From assembly GCA_963924565.1 (NCBI GenBank), contig OZ004615.1, positions 14,880,001 to 14,944,000 on the forward strand: a DNA stretch of 64,000 nucleotides. Reading direction: 5' to 3'. Shown here piece after piece: positions 1,282-59,735 of this stretch (within the stretch, counting starts at the first letter, position 1; each line of letters begins with the position of its first letter). A program made the translations under genes and the position numbers. The stretch comes from Ascidiella aspersa (taxonomy: Eukaryota). Below the pieces are notes generated by a model, which was not told where the DNA came from, did no database searches, and was given only the letters and a program-made list of their open reading frames with translations.

Positions 1282-3279
1282 CTTTCTACTTCCGTATGCA
1301 ACCTGATCTTCCGTATGCAATCTTAGAATTTTTTATTGATTTGCGTAAATTAATCGTTGCAATAGCTTTATTGTATATTTAATTATAATGTTATGCTTTT
1401 GTGTCTTGTCAGGAACAAAGCTCTTCGAAGTCTCTGCAAAGATTTCCATATACAGCATTGGTTTGTTCGATGAATTTGGACTTGTTACGGTGATATAAAA
1501 GGAAACTACTGCGGTTATGTCAATCAGAGACAAATGTTATTTTCTTTACAATGGCGAAGGTGCTGAGTGTGGTCAATATTTGTGTCAGATAGTTTGCAAC
1601 ATATTGAGTGGTTCAACTTGTACGCTAACCGCTGTAGTCACTCGCACAACATTTTGTTTAATTTATTGTCGCAATACATGTAAGTGATTATTGACTTTTT
1701 AAGTCATCAAACCGTCCTCGTAATGAATTTTTATATTTTCGCTGAATTACATTCCCCGATTTGAAGAATAAATTCAACTAATTGCATATAAATGTCAGGA
1801 CAATGTAATTTGCTGTTTTAAGAAGGACTTGGCTATTCTTTGACTCATATTGATTATGATGAGATTTGTCACTTTTATATGTAACATTAGAAACTATAAG
1901 GCGCTGGTCTAAAATCCTATACCACTTTGCACATTATTTTGGTTAGGGTCTGGTTTACCGTTTGGGTTAGGGCAGGGTGAAGTGTTATTATATTTCTTTT
2001 TATCAGTTTTGCCATTTTAATTTTGACGACTGGTTTCTGGATGTGGATTATTTAATCAATTGTGTTGTTATCAAAATTGATGTAAAGTACACAAAAAATT
2101 GATCACGTTATAGCGCAGGCCATTGAATGCTGATTAAATTAAAATACAGGAATATATAATTTTCAGTTGAAAATGACGAACAATGAAACGTCTTGCAAAA
2201 AACATGGTAACACAAAACCTTGAATAACAATCAGGGATGATTAACAAAGGATTTAAAATTGTAAAAAATCAGCAGTAGGAAACCACAGAACACTACGATA
2301 TTCGCTTATAAAATACTTGTATAGGTTTGTCCACAACTCGCGGCCTTTATTATGTAATTATATTTTGTTTACGATTCAAAGTTTAGCAATGCTTAATTTT
2401 TTTGTCCCAAACCTTATTTTTAGTACAAATTTAAAGTTGTAACAGTGGACTACATGTTTATGGCCCTCTCGCTCGCAGTACTTTTGTTATTAAAAACAAA
2501 AAACTATTTAATTACATTTATTAAAGCTAACGCTAAACGAATAATCAGCTACAAAAAGCTTCAACGACACCAAAGTGCAAAAACACATCACTAAAAACAA
2601 CGGATAACTGTTGTAAAAGATACGAGCTGGCGTCTTTTCGGCTGACTCATGCAACCCCTCTAGTGGTAGAAAACTAAACACCATCCCATTGTTTAGAAGT
2701 ATACGATAGCCTACCACAAAAGGGGATAACTGCGACTAAGCAGGCCAAATTCCCAAACGAAGAAAGTAGGTACTTTGGACGTATAGAAACGCTTCTAAAA
2801 TGTAATCGATTCTGTTTAATTATAGTGACAAAAGTTGCAGTTGTTATATCTCTTTGTTTTTCAGACATTAATATGTTTTTCAAACTTTAACGCAGTGGTT
2901 CTTTACCTTTCTTTTTTATCCCTTACACCACTTTAGTCGCTATTTAAACTACATTTCTCCTTAGTAAAACAGAACCTGCAAATATGTCAATACATAGAGT
3001 GCATAACCTCTTTAAAATCGCAAGTTTTAGCTGCAGTATTGCTACGAAATTATAAGTAATCAACTTTGCTGAAGGATATTTTAATGAAAACGGAATATTT
3101 AGTCGTATTAAATAACAGAAAGTACACACATTGCATTGTGGTGGAATAACAAGGAAGTGTACACTCCATTCAAAGTTTTATCTCGTTTGTGAAACAGAAA
3201 GCACTGTTTAGATTTTGAATTGGGGTCTGCTCATAACTGGCACAAATATTTTACTCCCAACTAAAACGGCTCCCACTGA

Positions 3280-3392
3280 GCCTGCGTAGTTCAGTAGGTA
3301 GAGCGACGGTCCAGGTTTGGCCGGAAGTCATGAGTTCTATCCTAACCGCAAGCTAGTAGTTTATCCAGCCTGGACTTGCTTGCACGAAAATC
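3280..3392 (+). mobile_element. tRNA-like (Pol III A/B box) repeat head, copy 1
   Basis: GCCTGCG-TA-GTTCAGTAGGTAGAGC-GA-CGGTC-CAGGTTT-GGCCG-GAAGTC-ATGAGTTCTATCCTAAC-CGCAAGC folds as a cloverleaf. It shares a 3' tail (tagtagtttatccagcctggacttgcttgca) with the copy near 41334-41407. Confidence 0.75.
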
Positions 3393-3688
3393 CTAATTAG
3401 GCCGACTAATTTCGGTAAACCTTTTCGGAGGCATCACGTGCATTGATATGACAGTTTTATCGTGAGTACCACGTGATTTCTGCGCAACTATTCAGCTTAG
3501 GGTCAATAGTGCTAAAGTTTTTTAAAAATCTTTTTGTAAGTTCGCCTTCTTAAGTTCTTATGCAGCGCTGCTTAAACGGTAAGCCATGGAACGTTACCAG
3601 GTGCCCCGCGGAAAAGCAAAAAAATTCTAAAATATAAATCATATGTTTTTTTATCATTTTTAACTTTCTCTTTCGGCTTGCAGTAGCG

Positions 3689-19127: not shown

Positions 19128-19426
19128 GGCGCTCTTTCACTTATGTACGTGAAAAGGGCGCTCTTTCACTATTGTACGTGAAAAGTTATGCAAAAAAAAT
19201 AATAATAATACCGCATACCACAACGCATATTGTTTGGGTTAGGGTGCGGGTTAGCGTTTGGGTGAGGGTGGGTCAAGTAATATTATGTTTATTATTAATA
19301 ATAACTTGACCCACCCTCAACCAAACGCTAACCCGCACCCTAACCCAAACAATATGTGTTGTGGTATGCGGCATTTGAAAAAAGTTTTTTTTTATTAATT
19401 TTTACGTACAATAGTGAAAGAGCGCC
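19128..19426. mobile_element. Fold-back MITE carrying GGGTTAGGG, copy 1
   Basis: TIR ggcgctctttcactattgtacgt / acgtacaatagtgaaagagcgcc; nearly the whole element is self-complementary. The left end is tandemly duplicated (19128 and 19157). Confidence 0.85.
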
Positions 19427-19864
19427 AAGTCTTATAAGATTGCAAGACTACAGAACATATATATTTGAGCTTAATTAATCTTTGGAGCTAATATAAAATA
19501 ATTTTAAACACCATAATGATGTAATTTTAGGTATAATGTTTTCGTCTGGAATCCCGGGATTTCCGGGAATTTTCATATTTCAATCCCGTTTCCGTGAGTG
19601 AAAAAATCCGGGACAAAGAGGAACCCTAGTGCCAAATATAGTAATAAAAAAATGGCCTAGACAAAATACTTAATTTGTTATTCAGCCTTGCCATTGTTTA
19701 TTCACAATATTAAACAATTGCTACAATTACGACAAATAACAATTACTTTTGATATTATTAGATTATACTGTGGTGGAGGTTAGCGTTAACATAATTAGCC
19801 TTATATATTAATATAGTTTTTGGCCAAATATAAATGGTTTGCTTGATTAAATAAATAATTTTTT

Positions 19865-20134
19865 GGCACTCTTTCCCTATTGTACGTAAAAATTAATAAA
19901 AAAAAAATTTCTTCAAATGCCGCATACCATAACACATATTGTTTGGGTTAGGGTGCGGGTTAGCGCTTGGTTGAGGGTGGGTCAAGTTATCATTAATAAT
20001 AAACATAATATTACTTGACCCACCCTCACCCAAACGCTAACCCGCACCCTAACCCAAATAATATGAGTTGTGGTATGTGGTATTATTATTATTTTTTTTG
20101 CATAACTTTTCACATACAATAGTGAAAGAGCGCC
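19865..20134. mobile_element. Fold-back MITE, copy 2 (opposite orientation)
   Basis: Near-identical reverse complement of 19157-19426. Confidence 0.85.
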
Positions 20135-20704
20135 AATTTTTTTTATGTGCAAATAAACGTTTGTATTACTTGTAAAAAAGTGCTTTTAATATATATTAGA
20201 AATTAGTTACTAAACTTTGGCACGAAAATAAGTTATAACTCAGATAAAGTTAAGAGCAAGGTACCATTTGCTGGACATAAAAAATATAACTTAATTTTTT
20301 TTGCTATTTTAATAAAATAAAAACATATTAATGACTTATTTCATACAGAATCAAGTTTACCCGGGGCTAACGAGCAGTATTTTTTGCGTGGTAAGAAAAT
20401 TAATACTTGTTATACCAAGTCAGTAAGAGTCGAAAAGATGACTTTATAAAGGCAGTAAAACGTTAGCTAGCATTCTATAATGACCCTCCTGTTTGCAGCT
20501 TTGGACTCTTTGGAAGGGGATCGTTTATTACATTGAGTTGCTAAAATGGGTCGTGGTATGTATCAAAAAGGTTGAAAACCACTGGTATAAGGGTTTTACA
20601 AGTCTGCATTGTGTGGCAGGTGTACACCCGAGATTTGTTTTTAAATGTGGTTTGTATGCACATCTTAATTTTAAGAAAAAGTTGAAAAATTGTGTTAGGA
20701 TTCG

Positions 20705-25500: not shown

Positions 25501-27413
25501 AAATTTTGGACTTGCAACTTTTTGGTATTTAAATGAAACACTTGCGGTCTCTTAAAACTACTTAGCGGTCACCCAAACCAAACCTTAAAAAAAGCCCTGT
25601 ACACACCAATTATGATCTTTCCGAGCCAAGCAACACGTGGCTGTTCAATTGTCGCAGAGGCCAAAACGCTGCAATTAAATATCACTCCAGCGAAAAATAA
25701 GCAATATTTGCGTACTATATAGCAACGTTACACGACATTCAAAATGTACAACATGTACATCATTCGAAACTCTAGCTTCGTTTAAGAAATTGCTTAAAAT
25801 GGCCACCGGTTAACCACAGTTACAAATCTTAACTTTGCTACAAAGCATTTAACAAGTTCTTACCGGTAATGTCAAGCCAAGCAGTTCAACATTGTCGTCA
25901 AATATTTTTGTTCCCTTGTGTTTGCAAACCGAACCGTTCGTTTCATTTTTTTTACCTTCGGCACACCAACACTTGAAAAAGCTAAAAATCGGCGTAACTC
26001 CTACGTAATATATATGTGTATCGACAACATCAGCAAATATCATGGGCGTTAGGCAGGCAACAGAAAAATGAGCGATTGCCTTGCAATAGCTGACGGAAAA
26101 CAGAGGGCTTTTAATAGCATTTGGAAAATGAAACTGGACATTGGTGCTTTGTTTTTTGTAGCTCCACATATTTTTCGAAACAACAACCAAGACTAATTAT
26201 ACTATCACAAAATGCCATTAATATATTTACAATGATATTTTTTTTTATAAGAAGGTAACATAGGTTTAAAAAAAGTTATACTTATTATTGAAGTTCCTAA
26301 ATTTACACCTGGAATATTGCATAAAAGGTCAAAATAGCTACCTTGATGAGATTTTCGCATTAATTCGACTGATTAAAAAGTACCCGGCCTGAACACAAGT
26401 AACACACCTACGGGAACTTCGCGGCACACCGGTTGCGGAGCAGTGGGAGCACTGTCCTAAACCAGGCAAAACTACTGCTCGCAAACAAAACAATAAACGT
26501 AACACTGAATAATACATAAGCAAGGCGATGGCTACGCTTGAACAACCTTCTCGGCACCCGTACCACACGTTGGGAGGCGAGAAATCTAATACATTGTAAA
26601 ACGAAATGATGTCACAAATATAACATTAGGTCGAGGTGTTTGCTATAACTGTCGAACTCTTGTGTGTTTATTATTGACATGATTTCTGATATCGCTTTAT
26701 GCAAAGCTCTGTGGCCCACTGAAAACAGCGTCATGGCCCACTACTGGGCCATGGCCCATAGGTTGAAAACACTGAGCGTCTAAACGTAGTCACCAAAACG
26801 GCCAATGCTAGACCGATGGCTCCCGATCGTCCAAACCCACACGTTCGGTCGTTATTTTCAACATTTCGGCCTTCTTCCGATGAATTTAGGACTTATTCCG
26901 ATGAATTTAGGACTTATTTCGATGAATTGAGGCCTTATTCCGATAAATTTAGGACTTATTCCGATGAATTTAGGCCTTATTCCGATGACTTTAGGACTAA
27001 TTCCGATGAATTTAGGCCTTGTTCCCACAGATTTAGATCTTATTCAGACGATTTTGATCTTACACTGTACTGGATATTACTGTGTATTCGGCTGTATTAT
27101 GTCGTTTGTCTTAGTACTATGGTTTACTTCTACTTAAGGTATTGTTGCTTTTTAGGTCTTATTGTGCGTTTTCGTACAAAACTGTGTATATTCAATAGTT
27201 TTCTTAGTAAGTAGTAAAAAATGATCATAATTGACAAAAATTCATTCACAGGGTGTGAAGACGAGAATGCTAAACATTTCCAACACCCTTGGTCTCTCAA
27301 ACACGGTGATGCGCCTAATTGAGAAGCGAACCACCCAGGACAAGCTGATACTATTTGGCGGGATGATAGTGACCACGCTGATCATGTATCTGCTTTGGAA
27401 GTTTTATACCTGA
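22567..27413 (+). CDS. gosr2: Golgi SNAP receptor complex member 2 (membrin/GS27, Qb-SNARE), 7 coding exons, 213 aa
   Basis: Exons 22567-22595, 22751-22815, 23162-23270, 23605-23737, 24113-24185, 24405-24475, 27252-27413; 642 nt in frame. Motifs MDALYHQTNR, MGRLETA, RQNARMRVDQVRYD, ALRNFHHRR, LGLSNTVMRLIEKR and a C-terminal TM match GOSR2. Confidence 0.95.
25436..25599. mobile_element. Short hAT-like MITE in gosr2 intron 6
   Basis: TIR cagtgtttattttaagg / ccttaaaaaaagccctg; perfect 8-bp TSD tacacacc. A near-identical copy lies at 34314-34490. Confidence 0.9.
26863..27055 (+). repeat. 21-bp minisatellite (tccgatgaatttaggacttat, about 9 units) inside a dispersed element
   Basis: Units start at 26876, 26897, 26918 and onward with period 21; this generates the SDEFRTY repeat ORF. 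Confidence 0.9.
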
Positions 27414-29432
27414 AAAAAAGCCGACGAAAAAGTTTTGAGTTGGGGACTACTTGCACGTTTCAATTATTTCGATTTAAAACGAAGTAAATGGTGACATGGT
27501 TTTATATTAAGCTCAACGATTTTTTGGGGTTCCTCTTTTCAGTCGCTAACCAAATGCTTATCTTGAACTAATTCAGAAAAAATAGTTGCATTTTACTGTT
27601 CCTTAACTAATTTGATGGTAGCATGGAACACATTCCGCCCCTAGAAGCAAGAAAGGTGCGATGCTATACGGTTGCAATTGATCAAACTTTTGTCCGCACA
27701 ACATAAGGTTGTGTGGTGCTTAACTATGCGACGAAATGGCTAAAAGTGTTTTTGTATACTGTAGAGCTGAAACGATGTTGACAAACCTTAATTCTTTTGT
27801 CACGGATTTGATAGCGCCCGATTTGTTTCATTTGTTTGTCGTTGTCCTATGTAAAATGTGCAATAGTACCGCGACCCGAAATATAACTGAAATACATAAC
27901 GTTGACTATAGCAGCCTACAACTCAAAAAGGAAAAACTTGTGCCTATTCCGCCATTGATCCAGTCATTTGCACCATGCCACACTGCGCCATTACAAGTTA
28001 CATAGGGTAAACTGTATCTTAAACTGGTTGGTGAAGTAACGTAGATTGAAATATTTTGGTGATCTCAACGTGGTATTATAGTAAACGTGTAAGTTTTTTT
28101 CTTTATTTGTGTTTCTTTCAAAATAATAGCTTGTGTCCAATTTGTTTAAAGAATGTGTATTGAAGTCTTTTCTGTTCAAGAATGCGTATCTCTTTCGCTG
28201 AGTGTGTAGGGGCCGCGACGTGAGACGTTTCACTTTTCCACGCATTCCGTTATTCTTACTCTTGCAGTGAAAAAACGCTTTTCACTTTGTTTGTGTTTAT
28301 TTAAAAAAATTATAACTATGTCGAGTCGACATGCGCTGCAAAATATATCATTGTTTACAAAATTACATGAACAAGCATCACGGGTATGAAATTGATAAAA
28401 CTAAATAAAAAACAACAGGCTTGTTTTGTAAGCACGAGTATATTATTACCTATAATTTTAGTTTTCCATTTGTATTGTGTAAAAGTTTGTTCCCCAATAT
28501 ATACCGACTGTGTAAAATATGAAGACCTGAAAGGAACCAAAGAGCTTATCTCATTAGGAGGAGAAGAAGACGCACGTTGTATGCGCCGTTGTCACGTTCC
28601 AAGAGCCTGTGGTTGGCGAACAACTTTAATCATATTTAATACAAAACGACATTGCGAAATATGTTTACCGTATGACTTACAAATATAGACAGAAGACCAG
28701 CTAGCCTGCTATCCTGTGTTACAACAGAAAGCATGCTTTAGTATGTTACCTTATAATTCAATAATTTTTTTGAAATGTTGAGTAACGACATGTTTGAAAT
28801 TGTCGTGTGTAAAAAAAAATATTTGCTGAACCGGCACCGAAAAATGTTCTTTAACTAAAAAATGGATTGTGTGGTTTCAAACATCTGTTCACAAAAATCA
28901 ACATCGAGCGGGTTTATTAACCTTTTTTAAAGCATGATTTTGAAACACAAATACTTTAACAATACGACACTGGTGAACGTGAAGAGATCCCATCTTTCGC
29001 TACACGATTTGGACAACATTTACATTGGAGTCCCCAAGTATAGATTCGAAGCTCAAGAGTCAAGAATGACATACAATTTAACTTAATTATATATAGTACG
29101 TTTGGAACACACATAAAGACCTAAAAGCAACAATACCTAAAGCACAAAAATCTATAAAACCAACGACATAATAAAGCCAAATACGCCGTAATATCTGCAA
29201 CAGAATAAGAACTTAATCGTCTGAATAAAGCATAAACCTGTCGGAATAAGTTCTAAATCTATCGGAATAAGGCCTAATAGTCCAAAATAACGCCTCAAGT
29301 AGAGGGTATGGGACGATCGGGTGCCATGGGTTGGGCATCGGCCGTTGTGGTGTCGACGTTAGGGCGCCCTAGTTTGAATGGCGTTGTTTGAGGATTCAAT
29401 GTCGCATATACGGCGAATTTATCTACCAAATA

Positions 29433-34828: not shown

Positions 34829-35802
34829 CAGGGGCAGGCAACTTCTCCAGTCGGCGGGCCTGATATGGTATAATTAAGTACTTGGCGGGCCGGATTACTG
34901 AATTGATACAATAACCGTACTGCCATTGCTTGCATGTTTTGTCGCATAATGGCGGCTAATGCTGTAAAAAAGTACTTGGGCATCCGATCCTTGCTAAATT
35001 AGCGACGCTCCTTGTCAACTTTACGTTTATTGGTAAAATCTAAGGGAAAATATTGATGTAAATTCTAAATCTAATTTGGGAACACACAACAAGACCTAAA
35101 AAGCAACAAAACCTAAAGCAGAAAAAACAATGATACCATAGTATTTAAGCCAAATTTGCAGTAACACTCACGACAGAGTAAGAACTTAATCGTCTGAATA
35201 AGACATAAATCTGTCGGAATAAGGCCTAAATAACGCCTGAGACTGTAGGAAGTAGGTATGGGACCTGGGACGATCGGCCGTTTTGGTGTCGCATTTTAGG
35301 CGCACTATAGTTTGAAGTGCGCCGCTGTTTTGGCACCTGACTTATTGGCCCTTCGGGGTTATTGGTGGGTAATAGGTAAGGTTAAACATTGGGTTAGGGT
35401 TGAAATTATTAGGGGAGTTAGTTATGTACTAGAGGTGGGGTTTAGGGTTAGGTAAAATGGTTTATAGATCTAATTCCGGTCATTCAAGTTTTAATCCGAC
35501 GGGTTTATGACTTATTCCAATTTAGACGGTATTACGACTATTAGGTGTTAGTCCTATTTTGGTCTTATTCCAACGTTGATGTTGTTCTTAGTTTGATCGT
35601 ATGGCTGTAGTTCTCTAGTTTCAACCCCAAATAAAGAACTAAAGAATACCTAACAATCACTATTATTTGACGTATTAGTGGGGGATTGCGGCAGACTGTT
35701 GCCGCGGGCCACATAATCATGTAAGACCAGAATCTGTCTGCGGGCCGCTCAAAGTCTCGTCGCGGGCCAGATCCGGCCAGCGGGTCGTGTTGCCCGCCCC
35801 TG
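34829..35802. mobile_element. hAT MITE nested in 33816-35829
   Basis: TIR caggggcaggcaac / gttgcccgcccctg; perfect TSD ctgtagac. Confidence 0.9.
35075..35620 (-). mobile_element. Bipartite dispersed element (degenerate fold-back arms with 21-bp units around a gcggcgcac/gtgcgcc core)
   Basis: Homologous copies at about 59115-59735 (complete), 24830-25112 plus 26775-27190 (split), 29095-29375 (one arm) and 32815-33245 (core deleted). Confidence 0.7.
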
Positions 35803-35838: not shown

Positions 35839-37192
35839 CTAGACGAAATACCCGGTGTTGCCCTGGTTAAATAGTATATTTACCAGTTATTTTAACTGGT
35901 TAAAAATAAATTACACCAAAATAATAATCATAATGTACGAAGTCTTCCTGAATTTTGTCTGGTTAAACAAAATGAAGCAATCCAACTTACTGTGGGCTCT
36001 TTATCACTATTGCACATTATGTTGTAACATGTTCAACTGCTCGCCTCAGGTTGTGTTACGGATAGCGTAAGAACTTCGTAAGGGGCATAAATAATGCACT
36101 GACCATTTAATCACTAATCACGTGTTACCAGCATTGTATAACTTTCTTTCTGAAGCGGCGTGTTATAGCCGATAATTTAAAAATATATATTTAACATCAA
36201 ACCAAATTGCAACGTTGTGTGTTTTTTTAAATGGAACTACTAAACACGCAACCTTAGCTAAACACGTCTCGTAATTTAACGTAATGAAAACCCGTGACAT
36301 ATATAAACTGTTGCTACCAGGCATGGTAATATAAATCAAAAACAGCTTCTCTGGTAATTGTAATTGTTATATACCCGTGACATATGTCGATCAAACATTA
36401 CTAAAAAACGTAAAAAAGTCGTAGCATCAATTGTTCAAGTTACGCGAAATTCAAGCAAATACGTAATCCCGGTAGGTATCCGTACTGCATTCAACGAAAA
36501 AGAAATCCCATAGAAAAGTAAATTCGCTTAGTGTTTAAACCGCAGCAATAAACGCGATATTTTGCAAAATCAGTCCAAATGTTGCGTAGTTTATATTCGG
36601 TTAGGGTTGCTGTACGTTGTCTGTTTAAATGGCCTAATGCCTTATGAAAGAATGTTAAGGAAAAAGCTGCAATAAACGCAATATTTTGCGAACTTAGGCT
36701 CCATTTACGTGGTTAAACAAACTAATGCCTTATGAAAGAATGTTAAGGAAAAAGCTGCAATAAACGCAATATTTTGCGAACTTAGGCTCCATTTACGTGG
36801 TTAAACAAACTGTTGTTCGTTAACATAAATTATAATATGTGATGTGCTTTTTACGTAATTCAGGTACTATACTTCTTCCAACGAAGGACTAAATACCCAA
36901 CGGCTAAGCACGTCAAACATTTTTTAAGTTGAAAACATTAAAAATTATTTTTTATTAGGGCAATATACCTTATTTGATTTTTTATTTTAAGGCAGGTAAT
37001 TGCGCTTGAAAACGTTTTACGCGGTTACGTTAAGAAGTTTAAATATGTCGCGCGCGCGCCTGTGGAGAAGCGAGCACACGACGGGGTGTCGCGGTCCTTT
37101 TGTTAGTCGACGAAGACGTGGCTCTGCCAGCGACCGACCGGGCGAACATGCTGACGACTGACCCACAAACAATCCATTATATATATATAAAA
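35839..37192 (-). mobile_element. Non-autonomous Helitron-like element
   Basis: The minus strand begins t(t)tatatatataatggattgtttgtggg and ends with a GC hairpin (ccagggcaacaccggg), 8 nt, then CTAG; no TSD. Both termini deviate by a base from the canonical A|TC...CTAG|T. Confidence 0.55.
36634..36811. repeat. Perfect 88-bp tandem duplication
   Basis: ctaatgccttatgaaagaatgttaagg...gtggttaaacaaa starts at 36634 and again at 36722. Confidence 0.9.
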
Positions 37193-40464: not shown

Positions 40465-43400
40465 ATGAGATTCCCATTTGCAATCTTTCTGGTGTCCTTT
40501 CTTTTCGCTGCCAATCAAAGTGATGCATGTAAGTTTTGGAAGACATGCATTGATGTTAAATAACCACGTTAATGAAAATCGTTCTATTTAGTATGTGTTA
40601 AGTTTTATTTAGCATGTCAAACGATAAAATCGATGCAACAGTATATAGCGGTCCATTTTTACTGGTAAATTATTTACTGTGATAACATTCCATATTTAAC
40701 ACCGCTTTCGTTCATTTGCAAGTTTCTCAAAGCATGTAAACGTAACAGAAAAAGTTCTCATAAACAAATCTAATAAAACAAGAACAAATTCTTGTTAAAA
40801 CGTTAAAAACATTGCCGCGATTGGGTATGGGTATTGAAATCTTTTTTCTGCCGGATGAAACCCAATTACACCCTCAATTCATATCAGGTGTGGCGTCGTT
40901 GGAATGGTGAGATCGATACCTATGCAAAAACTTTTTTTGGTCGGTGTTGCGCGATATTGCGTCTATTAAATTATATGAATACTTAAAACTTACATATTTT
41001 TTATTGTTTAAAAAGGTACTCTTGACAAAAGCAGCGTTTAAAACCTAGTTTAAATCTAAATAACATGGAGCAATCTAGAGAAGTTTAAAACTGCCGCGAT
41101 CACTTGTGAAAATAAATGTCGCTTTTCGCAGGCTTGCACCCTTATCTCCATATATCTTTTATCAAGTGTGGCATTGTTGTAAAGGTTTTTTTCTTGCACT
41201 ACCAATTATTATCATGAGAAATTTGTTTTTTTATTAATTATTCCTACAACACTGAAAGCCATTGCAGATTCAACGTTCGTTGATCGAATCTGTCGATCAT
41301 TGATGCAAGCAGGGCAGACTAGAAAAACAACTAGAATGCAGTGAGGTTCGAACTCAAGACCTCCGGTCAAGCCGGGACCGTCGCTCTACCAATTGAGCTA
41401 TGCAGGCTCAGAAGGGAACGAGTCGAGAAACAACCATTCGCCAATGCTTGATCACGCTGTTAGTACAAGCAACTTCATATTGAAGGGGATCCACAGTACC
41501 ATATCATTCTGCATAGCTCGGTGAATCTGCAATGGCTTTCAGTGCACTATTGATATGTAAGCCGTAATCGTTGGTCAAAAAGCAGCTTCAGAAAGGCTAC
41601 AGTTGTTAACACTCATATGTGTGTACATATGTTTCATTGTTATTCCTACAACTGTTTATTTTTGTGTGTAAATTATCCTAGCCTATGGGTAAAAAAACAT
41701 TCACATTTTTTAGATACACTGACTTGCGGTTCATCGGTAACATTAACGTAAGTACTACTTGTGATAGTTGTAATACTTTAAATTGTATTCTAGTCATAAA
41801 ATTTAGTTCGCAGATAAACCGTCTGTATAATTTTTCTTCACGAAGCTAACGAATAAAATACGCACATTTTAACGAACCATTTTTTAATTAAAGGTCGTAT
41901 GTTTTTTGTTTCAATGAAAGAAAGGCACTGCATACACAAGATTCTCAACACTGGCATTGATCTCTAGTTACACAACTTTGCAACTGATATTCTTTTTTAG
42001 ACTGGATGCGGCCGATCTGGTAAATTTGGGTACGACGAATGCAGCCAGGCGTTTTGTGGTCGCCCAGACCCAAGTGCTTTTCGGCGCCTTTAACCCAACG
42101 GACACTTGCTCCATTGACCAGGCTGATAGCATCACTTTTATGGCGTCCGAATGTTTCCCAAGCATTACTGTAAGTTAAGGGTATTTCACCTTTGAAAACC
42201 AGGGAGTTGGCTATATGGAATGCGAAACATCATGGAAATTTAGTCGACTCGCGCTTTGTTAAAAAACTCGGAAAATTAGACATGCCTTTTGTATTTCTAA
42301 TAGCTTAAATGTTTGCTTTCGTCTTATGTCTAAATCAGGGCCTACTTTCTATATTTTAAAGCCAAGACCAATATCTGAAATGCTAAATCTAACTTAAAAA
42401 ATGTCAATCTGTGTATGCGTTCAATATTTAAATCTCTGGAGTGAAAAACCAAGCAGCAATGCGACAATTACCACTTGCATTCATTCGCAGAGAGGAGCTA
42501 ACTTTGCCTTTACTTGGACGCTCTGGAAGGTTGTGGCCGACACAGACTTTCCAGAATCGATTGCGCGATACATCGATTCTTCGCTAGCCTTCACGTGCAA
42601 TTTTCCTCTTGAGACAGAGATTAGCGTTTCTATCCAACCCACTATCCGGTATGTGTAATGGAAGTAAAACAAACCTTTTCTGGATGCGTTGGTTTTTGTA
42701 CATTTTTCGAATGATTTTTTTGCACTTTAATGGAATTTTTTAACGCCTGTTGAGTTTGATTTCCTTAAAATGCAAACGTCGTTGTTTTTGCAACGTGGAC
42801 TAAATTAACCTAAAAAAATGTCGCAGTTGTCATAGATAAAATCTTAATACACATACGTCTGGCAGGATTTTGGTTTTACAAAATATAGTAAGATGTAATT
42901 TTTTTCACAGATCTACAGCCTTTGTTACGCAAGCCAGTGGAACTTTCACAATTACTGGCGGACTTTGCAACGACGACTTTACAATTCCGTTGGGTACAAA
43001 TTTGATAACTGTCCCTGATTACGTGAACATTCAGATCACGTTGGAAGGTGTTGGACCGTCTCTGCGTATTCGAGTGAGTTCATGTTTCAAATCATCTGGT
43101 AAAGAAACAGGATACCTTTTTAAGAGAAACGTTTTTGTTTTTAAATAAGATACATTGCGTAGGTAGCATTTTTATATGTTCGGTGGTACTCTTATGATAA
43201 GAATTTACGTCTACGTGTTATTGAGCGGCACCAATAACTTCCCTATGGTTGTACTTTGATTAAATCCTTATTTGGCTGTAGATAAAAAGATCTGCAGGAG
43301 TAACAATTAAAAAGATTGCTAGCCAGATGAATTTCACAGCTGGGTTTACGTCTGCGTTCTAGCGCGTTACATGATTGTTGTATTTCGTTTCAGGGAAAGA

Positions 43401-46400
43401 ACTGTTGGGTTGACAAGTCAGTCGAACTAAATACGACCTCCACGCCACGTTACAACATTATCACAAACTAGTAGGTTTATATTAGTTTAATTTTTATCCA
43501 ATAATGAAAGGCAGAAGCTATACAAGGTGGTTCTATATTTTACAGATAATGCTAACCAAAAGTTGCAAACTATTTTCCAACTTTGTTTCTTACGGCGATG
43601 TAAGCGACTGATTTTTTTTATGTTTTTCTTGATGTGTTAATTGTTCAGCACCTTTATTTGGAAAATATAGTCATGTGGCAATTTATCTATACTGCTAAGT
43701 ATCGTACTAATTGTACAGCATCATAAGAACTTCAAAATCATCTCCTTCAATTTTTTTCAAACTATTAAATATAGGCTTTTTTGTTTCGCAGAAAAACTTT
43801 TTTCTTCAGTTTGTTGGTGTAACCATAACTGTATACTTTTCATGACACACTATAACAGATGTCATAGTACTAATTCGTAAGTAAAAACAGCGCTGGTGAA
43901 CATTCTTTTAAGCGATCTTATTTAAATTTAGTTAATTTTTAATAATTTAAATTTTACTACATTTTGTGACCCTTGTGTTTAATAGAATTGTATTAAATGG
44001 AGTCAACATACATACGAAACAATTATAAAGACGTAAAACGGTATGAAGCCAGCGACACAAAAGGGGCTCAAACGTTTAGTTTGAATATTTCTTGGTTCTA
44101 TTAGCAAATAAAACCTATTACAACCTGCCGAAACCTTTCGGAGTTTAGTTTTAGCCCCTGGGTAAAAACGGTTGCCGAATGCGGACCCCTGATTTATAAC
44201 AAGAAACGTGCTAACAACTTTAACAAAAGTATCCAGAAAAATATAATGCTTAACACGTTATAATACAGTGATCAATAGTTTGTTTTGGCTACCAATTCAA
44301 AATGCTAATACAAAAATCTAACGATTTTCCACATATTACAGAAAATAATGAGAGTAACAAAACAGTCTTTTCGACCAAGTCGATTAGATAAAGTTATGGC
44401 GTCGTTTAGGTAACAGTAACGTCATTCTATATATAATTTTCAGGTTTGTCAGATAACAGGTTGCACCAAAACAATGCATTCCATATCGGGTGCCAATTTG
44501 ATTTAAAATCAGATGGGAATGTATCACATGTTGCAAACCGTGTTTGAAATTCTTTCGACTTAAATCACGAGTTTTTAGGGCTTAGGCTAACCCTTCGTTG
44601 ATTTGCATTAAGCTGTGAAAGTACTCCACTCACGGGCGAGACCATCAATGTCGAGCGACAAGTAGTCAAGAACGAAGTCGACGAAGAGTTTCAGATTCGA
44701 TTCAACACGTTCGTTTTCGCAGACGACCTTCATCCGACTACTCAATATTATGTGCATTGTCAGGTGGAGGTCTGCGACAACGACGGGGGTGATTGCCTAG
44801 CAGTAAGTGAAAAAGCTTTGTCACGAATTTACCTAATATTGCTCGAGGTTGGATTTTTATGTGTATGGCATATGGTATATAGATTTTTGTTACCAACTTT
44901 TCTACATGTGTTAAAAGTATACACATGTCATTGTTTGTTGGTAATTCCTAGTGTTTCTGTTCAAGCTCTACCATTCATTTATTTAGTGCAGAGGTACTAT
45001 TCTCACCTTACTAAATGTACTTTAGTTGTTGTAACAAAGCAAACAATATTTATTTTTAGAGGCGTGCTGCCCAACGTTTTCTTCTGTAAACAATTGTCGC
45101 CTTTGACCCTATAAATACCGCCATTGCAATACACTTCCAATAAGACAGTCTATGTAACGATCGCTTGTTACTATTTTGTCATATTAGACCGGTGGCTGCA
45201 AAAAGAGGAAGAGGCGAAGTGTTGTGTCGGAATTACCTACGGAAGCTGAAGTTCACCACGTTACAGTTGGACCCATCCAATTTATACCTGTTGATCACTG
45301 CGATAACGTAAGGAAATAATGAGTTCTTGCAATTTACCTAACATTTTTTTCTTGCAAGTTACCTGAAACCTCATTTCCACCAAACTCCGTTTCCCAATGC
45401 CTTTTCCGAGTCGGAATATCGGACCCACCAGTCGCTACAAGTTGTTGTTGTTGTTTTTATCTCGCGTCTGTAGAATGTAATGCACCAAAATCCTATGTTT
45501 TGGTGAAAAAGATAGCTTTATATAATAATAACGATTTTTTAATGGTCCTTTATCAAATGTGATACTACCAGCTTAATATGCGCTATTTTATTTATTATTA
45601 GCTGATTATGTTTTCAACCGCGATATATAGGCCTATGTTTATTTTTAGAAAAACGGTGGATGCGAGGAAGTGTGTGTAATAGATAAAGACGAACTCGGTC
45701 AGTGTTACTGCGGCAAAGGAGAGACACTTGCTAGCAATGGAAAAGATTGTATCGGTATGTGCAATATTATGAAATTTCAAGGGTGTAACTGAAACTGCAG
45801 TAACCGAAGATTTAAAATAGAAATTAAATATTTGCAACATGTGTAATAGAACAATTTTTATTCGACCCAAATGATAGTTCTTTCTTTATATTGCCAAAAA
45901 CTTCGATCCTAAAATATAACATGATGCAGACACTTCTGTTTAATTTGCACACGGTGTTTAGGAATTCCAAAGTCGGTCGAATATTTGTGCTTATATATGT
46001 GTTGGGCAAAGTTGTACGATGGGTAATCGTCAATTTTTATTAATTGTTACATAGTAATACTCCCTAAAATGCACTGTTTAAACAGCTTTCAAAGATCGTT
46101 TGGGCGTAAATTGAAACCATACGTTTCTTTAATACATATAGTGATATAACTTGTAATTAATAATAGACAAATGGTTTCAACGCAAATAGTGCCTTGATTT
46201 AGCACGCATATCAAGTCATTTAAAATCCAATTACGGTGTTATAATTCAACTATATTAGGATTTTAGGCATGCAAAATTATGTGTAAATACGACATCTAGT
46301 TTTTTATAAGGTTCTATAGAAAATTTGTCTCTTTACGAAAACTAGAAAATTTTGTACTTTCTTTTAAACTTTAATCTATCCATTCTTTCTGTGTAGGCTA

Positions 46401-59114: not shown

Positions 59115-59735
59115 CATAGGGTCTAGTTCAGCCATAAGCCCGAAATTAGAACAACATCAACGTCGCAAAAAAATAAGTGCGAAATAAAATCAAAGTAGGA
59201 CTAAAACATTATTGTCTAAATAACGTATAAATCCAATTAAGACCTAAACCAGTCGGAATGAGACCTAAATGGTCAGAAAATGGCCATAACATGTTACCTA
59301 ACCCCAAACTCAACCACTAACATCATCACTAACTGATATAAAAATTTGAACCCTAACCCAATTTCTAACCCTACCCATTGCCCGTTGCTAACTCCAAAGA
59401 AGGGAAAACAATCCGGTACGAAAACAGCGGCGCCCCAGCACGTAGTTCAACTATTAGGGCGCCAAACGTCAACAACAAAACCGGTTCTAGACAGGTGTCC
59501 CCTAATCGTCCTCTCTATAGTTTTAGGTGCTATTATGTGCATTTGGAACTTATTCTACAGAATATAGGACTTATTCCGGCAGGCAGAGGTTTTGTTCAGA
59601 CGACTTTTGGTCTTGTTTCGTCGTGTTATCACTGCATATATGGCATTGTTATCTTATTGGTCTTAATGCTTCAGTATTATAGATTATTCTGATTTACATA
59701 TGGTTGCTTTGTTGGTCTTATTGGTTGTCCACAGT
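59115..59735 (+). mobile_element. Bipartite dispersed element, complete copy
   Basis: cagccataag..agaacaacatcaacgtcg..taagacctaaa..accctaaccc..aaaacagcggcgcc..actattagggcgccaaacgtcaacaacaaaaccgg..ggacttattccgg, colinear with the other copies. Confidence 0.7.

Follow-up and report, generated by a model that had tools for sequence, protein, structure and literature searches.

The insert and its empty allele

We analysed a window of 64,000 nucleotides from Ascidiella aspersa (contig OZ004615.1, positions 14,880,001 to 14,944,000), in which an earlier note, made from the letters alone, had picked out a tRNA-like RNA polymerase III (Pol III) cassette inside nested inverted repeats and terminal direct repeats at 41238-41652 (positions are those of the window). 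This segment holds an insert of 402 bp bounded by two copies of a 13-bp repeat, A. We give a probability of about 0.8 to the reading that the insert is a head-to-head copy of a tRNA-containing repeat family, likely a non-autonomous partner dependent on a Penelope-like element (PLE), and that it was copied by a PLE enzyme with reverse transcriptase (RT) and GIY-YIG domains. The observations behind this reading are a target-site duplication (TSD), an insertion polymorphism, two zones in which copies end, the pairing of these zones in head-to-head copies, like anatomy in a resident PLE, here termed PLE-A, and a conserved tRNA block. The labels PLE-A, E1, E2, U and subfamilies A and C were coined in this analysis.

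The repeats A, B/B' and C/C' of the earlier note were all present at the positions given there. The left and right copies of A (41238-41250 and 41640-41652, both on the plus strand) are direct repeats matching at 13 of 13 letters. Between them lie an inverted arm (41250-41509, minus strand), which corresponds to unit positions 1-250 of the family in tRNA sense with 91.6% identity to the subfamily A consensus, and a direct arm (41518-41640, plus strand; 93.0%), which corresponds to unit 223-350. The outer end of the inverted arm falls in end zone E1 and that of the direct arm, made up of B' and the tail from E1 to E2, in end zone E2. The flagged copy is a head-to-head insertion of the E1+E2 type, reading inverted unit 250-1, C' and direct unit 223-350, and the extension that the note had assigned to the element is indeed part of it, belonging to the direct arm. 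On the minus strand of the inverted arm, the U segment (41408-41509, unit 1-100) lies DNA-upstream of the tRNA-like cassette (41333-41407); a predicted pairing joins U across E2 to the preceding unit's tail. The cassette carries A and B boxes and a non-standard anticodon loop, and the Rfam tRNA model matched it with 36.8 bits (E 4.8e-6), thereby confirming the proposed antisense tRNA-like body. Directly 3' of this body there is a T5 run (41323-41327, A5 on the plus strand) in a placement like that of a Pol III terminator.

B (41250-41275, minus strand; unit about 223-250) shares its first base with repeat A, and its part at 41250-41272 pairs with B' at 41522-41544 perfectly over 23 nt, or at 96% over 26 nt. 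Both arms contain B/B', which is a single segment of the family. C (41395-41405) and C' (41509-41519, plus strand) are complementary at 11 of 11 letters; C' is a short piece of the tRNA 5' part that lies at the arm junction in this copy alone. C' overlaps its neighbours by 1 nt and 2 nt and has about 8 letters of its own, for which we estimate a chance match to the 350-nt unit, on either strand, at roughly 1%. The junction between C' and B' occurs once in the 308 Mb searched. Short templated pieces like C' were seen at the junctions of other copies (loci L008, L016, L275 and L282), and C' is likely a by-product of a template switch. The direct arm also contains a tail block (41593-41617, plus strand) that by alignment resembles the 3' end region of PLE-A and lacks 5 nt in this copy (deletion near 41599); an 11-nt insertion lies near 41276-41286. 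Two substitutions at 41335-41336 break the acceptor stem of this copy, about 95% of family reads having the pairing letter. No open reading frame (ORF) of at least 110 aa overlaps the insert, in agreement with the view that the element is non-autonomous.

An empty site was found in contig 9 of run X2, which comes from another sample with the same species label: 41232 is followed by 41640, with only flank letters between them, a single A and the whole insert absent. Since this empty site holds A once, A is a target-site duplication and the insertion is polymorphic. Run X1, which may be the sample of the assembly itself, continues into the insert from both flanks. The earlier note had taken A to be part of the element on account of its likeness to DNA upstream of an older copy, copy 1. 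Both points failed: A followed none of 31 other E2-type ends (the best agreeing at 9 of 13 letters), and the DNA upstream of copy 1 is better taken as the sense homologue of the junction between E2 and U in the unit (score 477 as against 105 on the reverse strand). Thus B/B' and A exceed chance, the former being a family segment in both arms and the latter being proven by the empty allele. Copy 1 (about 3100-3460, plus strand, limits approximate) is an older, decayed relative in direct orientation, in the order tail end, U, tRNA, mid and tail start. It is 81.7% identical to the family over 3276-3384 and about 80% to the flagged copy over 97 nt; ARAGORN calls it at 3279-3355 (tRNA-Thr) but does not call the tRNA-like body of the flagged copy. 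None of the RNA reads of run X8 fell on the flanks of the locus or was 99% alike to the flagged copy. We judge the flagged locus to be a scar left by integration; nothing indicates that it has its own function.

Copies and ends of the repeat family

The genome searched comprised 308.6 Mb in 75 contigs. A first-look search with the region returned 3487 candidates, 40 of which were scored, and 30 of those loci were mapped. The family unit is about 350 bp long (345-357) and tandem-prone, and in tRNA sense it runs from U (100 nt) through the tRNA-like part (103-176), T5, mid, E1 (about 253), tail and E2 (about 335-352) to the U of the next unit. There were 976 exact genome matches to a 22-mer from the tRNA 3' part (control 0) and 367 matches to a motif of the younger subfamily C (control 1); these matches count units, not insertions, and we put the family at about a thousand or more copies. 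Copies of subfamily C, the youngest, are 90-100% identical to their own consensus, with TSDs in 19 of 28 loci; one array of this subfamily has 11 near-identical full units behind an inverted 5' arm. Older relatives whose tandem unit is shorter, at about 139 bp (some of U, with tRNA and T4), were also noticed (L050 at G000:C5:33670692-33673847, L045, L040, L102 and L108), and runs X3 and X6 show them as a 'goes back 112' joint. Family-like contigs occur at low depth in runs labelled organism B and marine metagenome, where a relative and carry-over are indistinguishable, and these were not used.

To describe the insertions we started from the first 100 matches listed for contig C1, chosen independently of likeness to the flagged copy, and merged neighbours. 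Loci L003, L007 and L028 (already fetched), L115 (the same insertion again) and L106 (a duplicate) were left out, giving a sample of 82 insertions. The outer 3' ends fell into two zones in 96 of 115 cases, 53 at 247-260, 12 at 330-343 and 31 at 344-352, the distance from E1 to E2 being about 82-97 nt. Head-to-head copies numbered 33 and single-direction copies 49; none was tail-to-tail. E1 was combined with E2 in 23 of the 25 head-to-head copies having both ends in a zone (binomial p 1e-5), the other 8 having at least one end outside both zones. Inversion points and arm lengths differed between copies. This variation, together with the empty allele and the single occurrence of the C'-B' junction, rules out the nested inverted repeats as a fixed, family-wide architecture, which the earlier note had supposed. 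TSDs of 12-18 bp, 70% A+T in composition, were found in 34/82 insertions as compared to 5/400 swapped-flank controls; by age of copy, they were present in 5/26 old, 11/20 middle and 18/36 young ones. A unit junction was crossed by 20 of the 82 insertions.

The 5' ends were broadly spread, and only 3/115 lay at the tRNA start (95-107), with 4.2 expected. RNase P or a Pol III start as the agent setting 5' ends there was rejected, such ends not being seen; a pile-up of 5' ends at unit position 1-3 was mostly an artefact of the unit boundary. No A-rich or simple-repeat tail was present in the printed copy ends. The element is thus not a plain SINE (short interspersed nuclear element), as the earlier note had maintained. 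That note had coupled an ordinary SINE to a one-off origin of the inverted repeats; the 5' ends of copies do not gather at the tRNA start, and the C'-B' junction is a one-off. The features of a PLE derivative found in the family were partial tandems, an inverted 5'-truncated copy, variable TSDs, two 3' start sites and, on one side only, an optional tail. Firm indication of a PLE comes from the integration anatomy.

Resident Penelope-like elements and the tRNA-like cassette

GIY-YIG and RT searches, in which 150 of 211 and 129 of 268 candidates respectively were scored, revealed several PLE families with hammerheads in pseudo-long terminal repeats (pLTRs). PLE-A encodes RT and, at the C terminus, a GIY-YIG domain, separated by a linker with a CxxCxxCxHH motif as described for Neptune/Nematis, and a hammerhead core is present. 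Its tail motif had 94 matches, pieces being 86-100% alike to one reference copy, and among the candidates scored RT matches of the PLE-A group were mostly at 79-100%, those of others mostly at 60% or below. A protein-representative search gave relatives of up to 57% identity, without a clade name. The ends of PLE-A form two zones about 78-82 nt apart. Eighteen of its 28 complete insertions were head-to-head, E1+E2 being found in 14/18 and E2+E2 in none, and TSDs of 10-22 bp accompanied 22/28. In sequence, the unit tail (subfamily A consensus) agreed with PLE-A just before its E2 at 26/30 letters. The score of 38 was reached in 0/500 dinucleotide shuffles (z 4.4 for subfamily A); of nine other PLE termini, eight were not significant and one gave 9/500. 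A pattern search for variant tails returned PLE-A-like matches only (94), no driver closer than PLE-A was seen in about 70 GIY-YIG/RT loci examined, and no tail match was found in 30 loci (6 groups) of the 1374 candidates for RTs like those of long interspersed nuclear elements (LINEs).

The Penelope-like affinity suggested by the earlier note is accordingly the best reading, given the two end zones, the E1+E2 pairing and the like anatomy in PLE-A. An autonomous PLE is ruled out, the RT and GIY-YIG belonging to the separate PLE-A. We consider PLE-type mobilisation of the family very probable, and the odds that PLE-A itself is the current driver about even. Homology of U and the pre-E1 region to the start of the PLE-A ORF looked colinear and was not significant, and replacement of the hammerhead by the tRNA through sequence descent was rejected, there being no similarity (z -1.1). 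PLE-A also forms a tandem array of period 3422 with an inverted arm (L082-L083, G000:C2:30626000-30645999); in these tandem copies the RT and endonuclease parts are in different frames, and in L081 they are in one frame in a 5'-truncated copy. At least five further hammerhead-bearing PLE families reside in the genome (L093, L096, L131-L170), several of which have head-to-head copies and 3' ends at two positions, about 70-85 nt from each other.

The tRNA-like cassette shows no change between subfamilies A and C, with 0/74 differences in the tRNA part and 47/275 elsewhere (p 1e-5). The difference-free block fits the tRNA limits (103-176), the last difference before it lying at 97 and the next at 177. 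Family copies have a full cloverleaf, score up to 55 bits as tRNA with Rfam and keep intact A and B boxes; because of the non-standard anticodon loop, the cassette is unlikely to decode. The closest source among the few isotypes sampled was the host tRNA-Lys(CTT), at 52 of 74 letters. At G000:C3:31.38-31.61 Mb (L285-L296, L301-L304), genes resembling those for tRNA-Lys(TTT) and tRNA-Glu, variants among them, form a large tandem cluster. A run of T4 or longer follows the tRNA part in 112/124 copies, in the position that such runs take after host tRNA genes. For longer RNA the prediction is that the acceptor stem's 3' strand pairs instead with sequence behind this run, forming a 9-bp hairpin with the T run in its loop (predicted pair probability 0.97-1.00 for the hairpin and 0.00 for the acceptor stem). 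Among 139 copies, one pair of this hairpin was U-A 92 times, C-G 29 times and U-G 9 times, and it was unpaired in 9. From 26 natural copies RNAalifold predicted the T-run hairpin together with helices that enclose E2 and join the tail to the next U; two pairs showed double changes, in 6 and 7 copies. In the RNAalifold structure 95.2% of cells were paired and 6 pairs had double changes, as was the case in 2/500 shuffles.

Several results weigh against the reading of the family as a PLE-dependent element with a working Pol III cassette. As regards PLE-A, its E2 count is inflated because loci were mostly picked by a motif beside E2, and under laxer scoring the tail match gave 1/500 for PLE-A and 0/500 for another terminus (B2). 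The tail of subfamily C, the youngest, reached only z 0.6 with PLE-A, U gave z 1.2 and 0.8, the pre-E1 region 0.4 and -0.5, and the unit has its main E2 some 15 nt past the position aligned to E2 of PLE-A. The apparent sequence link to PLE-A is thus short and confined to subfamily A; and as only part of the RT and GIY-YIG candidates were scored, a closer driver may be unseen. Segmental duplicates remain among the 82 loci (L210/L235, L246/L250 and L248/L249). As regards the cassette, the unchanged tRNA block could reflect a recent module exchange. Most T runs after host tRNA genes do not exceed the T5 run in length (T3-T4 in 219/335, sampled loci), so read-through may be rare. Family RNA reads, from one cDNA library, were about 20-fold scarcer than DNA reads (about 37 and 750 per million), lay on both strands and had no defined ends, although an 85-nt product would be missed by a cDNA library. 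The pile-up of 5' ends at the tRNA start that a Pol III start or an RNase P cut would favour in long copies was absent. A wider, hand-drawn structure gave 52/500 shuffles for the measure used above, relatedness alone can beat the shuffle control, and a few subfamily-level events underlie the covariation of the hairpin and the tail-U helix, which is therefore suggestive only. Covariation in the acceptor stem was significant over all copies, disappeared among old ones and is confounded by CpG decay.

Proposed integration, rival explanations and known systems

We propose that a PLE enzyme would bind the tail-U structure of a tandem read-through RNA, that both target strands would be nicked about 13 bp apart and cDNA primed from each nick, and that cDNA would start internally in the RNA, at E1 for one strand and at E2 for the other. 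In the flagged copy, the E1 cDNA would have reached 250 nt. The E2 cDNA would have passed E1 by about 27 nt, giving B/B', and then switched briefly to the tRNA 5' part, giving C', before being joined to the other arm. As template we propose read-through RNA from a tandem array (or else a circle), since in most inserts U stands ahead of the tRNA and folding predictions pair U with the tail across E2. This two-nick, two-start integration is modelled on the behaviour of an anole PLE in vitro, which cut and extended both strands, used two internal start sites bounding the tail and required RNA downstream of the start, hammerhead cleavage being dispensable (PMC11167929). The pLTR is likewise described as sufficient for mobilisation in trans (PMC3846280), and partial tandems, an inverted 5'-truncated copy and an optional one-end tail as PLE features (PMC8557442; PMC3846280). 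Self-priming on an antisense template, outlined in PMC3846280, may instead have given rise to the head-to-head joints.

The last step, the weakest, concerns the cassette. It would act as a Pol III promoter whose T5-terminated transcripts fold as a tRNA mimic, whereas in transcripts reading past T5 the hairpin would form and the acceptor stem open, which would let them escape tRNA processing. We advance this step, including the change of fold in read-through RNA, tentatively. It is also doubtful whether the family is in full a Penelope parasite, with a tRNA-mimic gene and T5 terminator in the place of the PLE hammerhead, a hairpin switch that spares multimeric templates, and one ribonucleoprotein that primes E1 and E2 on opposite strands. 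The account in which PLE mobilisation uses RNA polymerase II (Pol II) read-through RNA, from host introns or a PLE-like promoter, departs from our best explanation in this step alone. In that account the cassette would be kept for another reason, such as chromatin opening by TFIIIC or a short tRNA-like product, or would have come by recent module exchange. The conserved T5, the tRNA start without a 5' pile-up and the low, two-stranded RNA signal agree with it, but the close match of the difference-free block to the tRNA limits and the covariation of the T5 hairpin do not; we regard Pol II read-through, these reasons for the cassette included, as a serious contender that falls short of even odds.

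The other readings concern the mobilisation or the nature of the element itself. An ordinary tRNA SINE moved by a LINE, with an L1-style 5' inversion by twin priming here, would account for the TSDs of 12-18 bp with 70% A+T, for the tRNA-Lys-like part and, with 1374 LINE-like RT candidates in the genome, for a source of enzyme. Twin priming would also fit the inverted arm, whose overlap is short and whose junction shows microhomology. It is expected, however, to begin at variable internal sites, whereas the inverted arm begins in a fixed zone with E1 paired to E2 in 23/25. Inversion in 33/82 copies, the tRNA lying mid-unit, 5' ends at its start in just 3/115, the missing A-rich tail and the 0 tail matches in the 30 RT candidates examined of 1374 also speak against a LINE, and we judge this reading quite improbable. 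The fixed cassette of the earlier note, with terminal A and nested B/B' and C/C' acting as an RNA switch between two folds, has in its favour that the repeats exist and that a read-through transcript of either strand is predicted to pair B/B' and C/C'. Yet C' and B' both lie upstream of where an internal minus-strand transcript, running from 41407 towards 41323, would start; such a transcript would lack them and could not use the C/C' switch, which could form only in read-through RNA from outside. With the empty allele holding one A, the C'-B' junction found once, the acceptor stem of this copy broken and run X8 silent at the locus, this reading is extremely improbable.

A metazoan non-LTR retrozyme, that is, a tandem 170-400-nt unit with a type I hammerhead that is circularised and copied by rolling circle, resembles the family in size, tandem arrays (11 near-identical units), long TSDs and co-occurrence with PLEs (PMC7229834), and subfamily C has a CTGATGA heptamer. 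No hammerhead core with stem II and GAAA was found at 0-1 mismatch on either strand in a descriptor scan of the subfamily A unit and the flagged copy (subfamily C lay outside the scan), which detected the PLE-A hammerhead used as a positive control. At two mismatches there were 2 matches, compared to 1.0 in shuffles, and Rfam scans returned no ribozyme family. The decayed core that the earlier note had suspected at 41586-41606 is likewise absent, its site being the PLE-like tail block minus 5 nt. Folding predictions place the subfamily C heptamer in a pairing with the tail, where it has a compensatory partner; this explains it better than a hammerhead. A test for circular RNA gave a low two-stranded signal in one cDNA library, and circles and tandems look alike in such reads. 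A retrozyme is thus highly improbable. DIRS elements and Helitrons are not known to make a target-site duplication, and a derivative of DIRS/Ngaro or Helitron is ruled out by the 13-bp TSD with its empty site. A miniature inverted-repeat transposable element (MITE) or foldback element with fixed terminal inverted repeats is ruled out, as 49/82 copies have a single orientation and arm lengths vary.

We compared the family with known systems. It shares with endonuclease-bearing (EN+) PLEs having an inverted pLTR (Penelope/Poseidon, Neptune, Nematis and Naiad) partial tandems, 5' truncation, a head-to-head copy, a one-end tail, variable TSDs and two 3' start sites (PMC8557442, PMC3846280, PMC11167929). 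Unlike these, it has no ORF, no hammerhead and a whole tRNA-like cassette, its tail is 82-97 nt as compared to 30-40, and its TSDs are 12-18 bp as compared to 8-10 bp in Adineta examples. Chlamys PLEs such as MRC1 are also non-autonomous, with pLTRs, head-to-tail multimers and 3' similarity to an autonomous family, but they are green algal and, as described, without a tRNA-derived part (PMC8557442). The Sm-alpha/Sj-alpha repeats of Schistosoma have a Pol III-type promoter in a tandem unit, where the upstream unit would transcribe the downstream one; they differ in carrying an active hammerhead, and their mobilising enzyme is not named in the description, whereas a PLE signature was measured for the family (PMC6765202). 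Retrozymes have 170-400-nt tandem units, long TSDs and PLEs as proposed drivers in common with it, but their defining features, a type I hammerhead and abundant circular RNA, are not shown for the family (PMC7229834). TRIMp3 elements (Helenus, Ajax and Cassandra) carry a small-RNA-derived Pol III cassette in the terminal repeat of a non-autonomous retroelement, yet use LTR machinery, with a primer-binding site (PBS), a polypurine tract (PPT) and TSDs of 4-5 bp, in contrast to the TSDs of 12-18 bp and head-to-head, PLE-type ends of the family (PMC10886601). Its TSDs were 11-18 bp where found and its ends were fixed on the 3' side only; PBS and PPT were not searched. With SINE2 the family shares tRNA-like A and B boxes, shortness, about a thousand or more copies and TSDs, but its tRNA is not a 5' head, T5 follows directly, an A-rich tail is lacking and there are two fixed 3' zones.

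Some further observations concern other parts of the window and genome. A ZP-C (zona pellucida) domain match (E 7.9e-6) lies in an open frame at 44602-45114. At 19152-20139 there are inverted arms of 277 nt (95%), each with an internal 90-nt hairpin, of MITE- or foldback-like aspect. One family of 21-bp tandem arrays, in both orientations and with shared flanks, occurs at 26842-27072, 29155-29311, 35142-35247 and 59232-59624, and an 88-bp tandem pair (94%) at 36622-36797. The small contigs L052 (G000:C11:2088-5303) and L051 (C35) carry intron-free genes of bacterial look, which by eye we take to be UvrC-like and Rho-like; co-assembled bacteria are possible.

By analogy, the family can be regarded as the logical counterpart, for PLE machinery, of SINEs, retrozymes, Sm-alpha repeats and TRIMp3. 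Searches of full-text literature gave no description of a tRNA-bearing PLE partner, which is no proof of novelty because Repbase Reports, Dfam and most closed-access SINE papers lay outside their coverage. The family is likely a PLE-mobilised retroelement bearing a tRNA cassette, a counterpart of SINEs that depends on PLEs; as a kind of short mobile element it may be undescribed. Mobilisation in trans by PLEs has been proposed for metazoan retrozymes (PMC7229834) and shown by structure in a few cases (PMC3846280, PMC8557442). The family also matters for annotation, in which its copies, with tRNA scores of up to 55 bits, would end up classed as SINEs or satellites. As a young and polymorphic family, 350 nt in length, that resides alongside a young PLE whose end anatomy is the same, it provides a minimal substrate for asking what a PLE enzyme recognises, and lets one ask why the tail is present at one end only, in the family (E1+E2 in 23/25) as in PLE-A (14/18).

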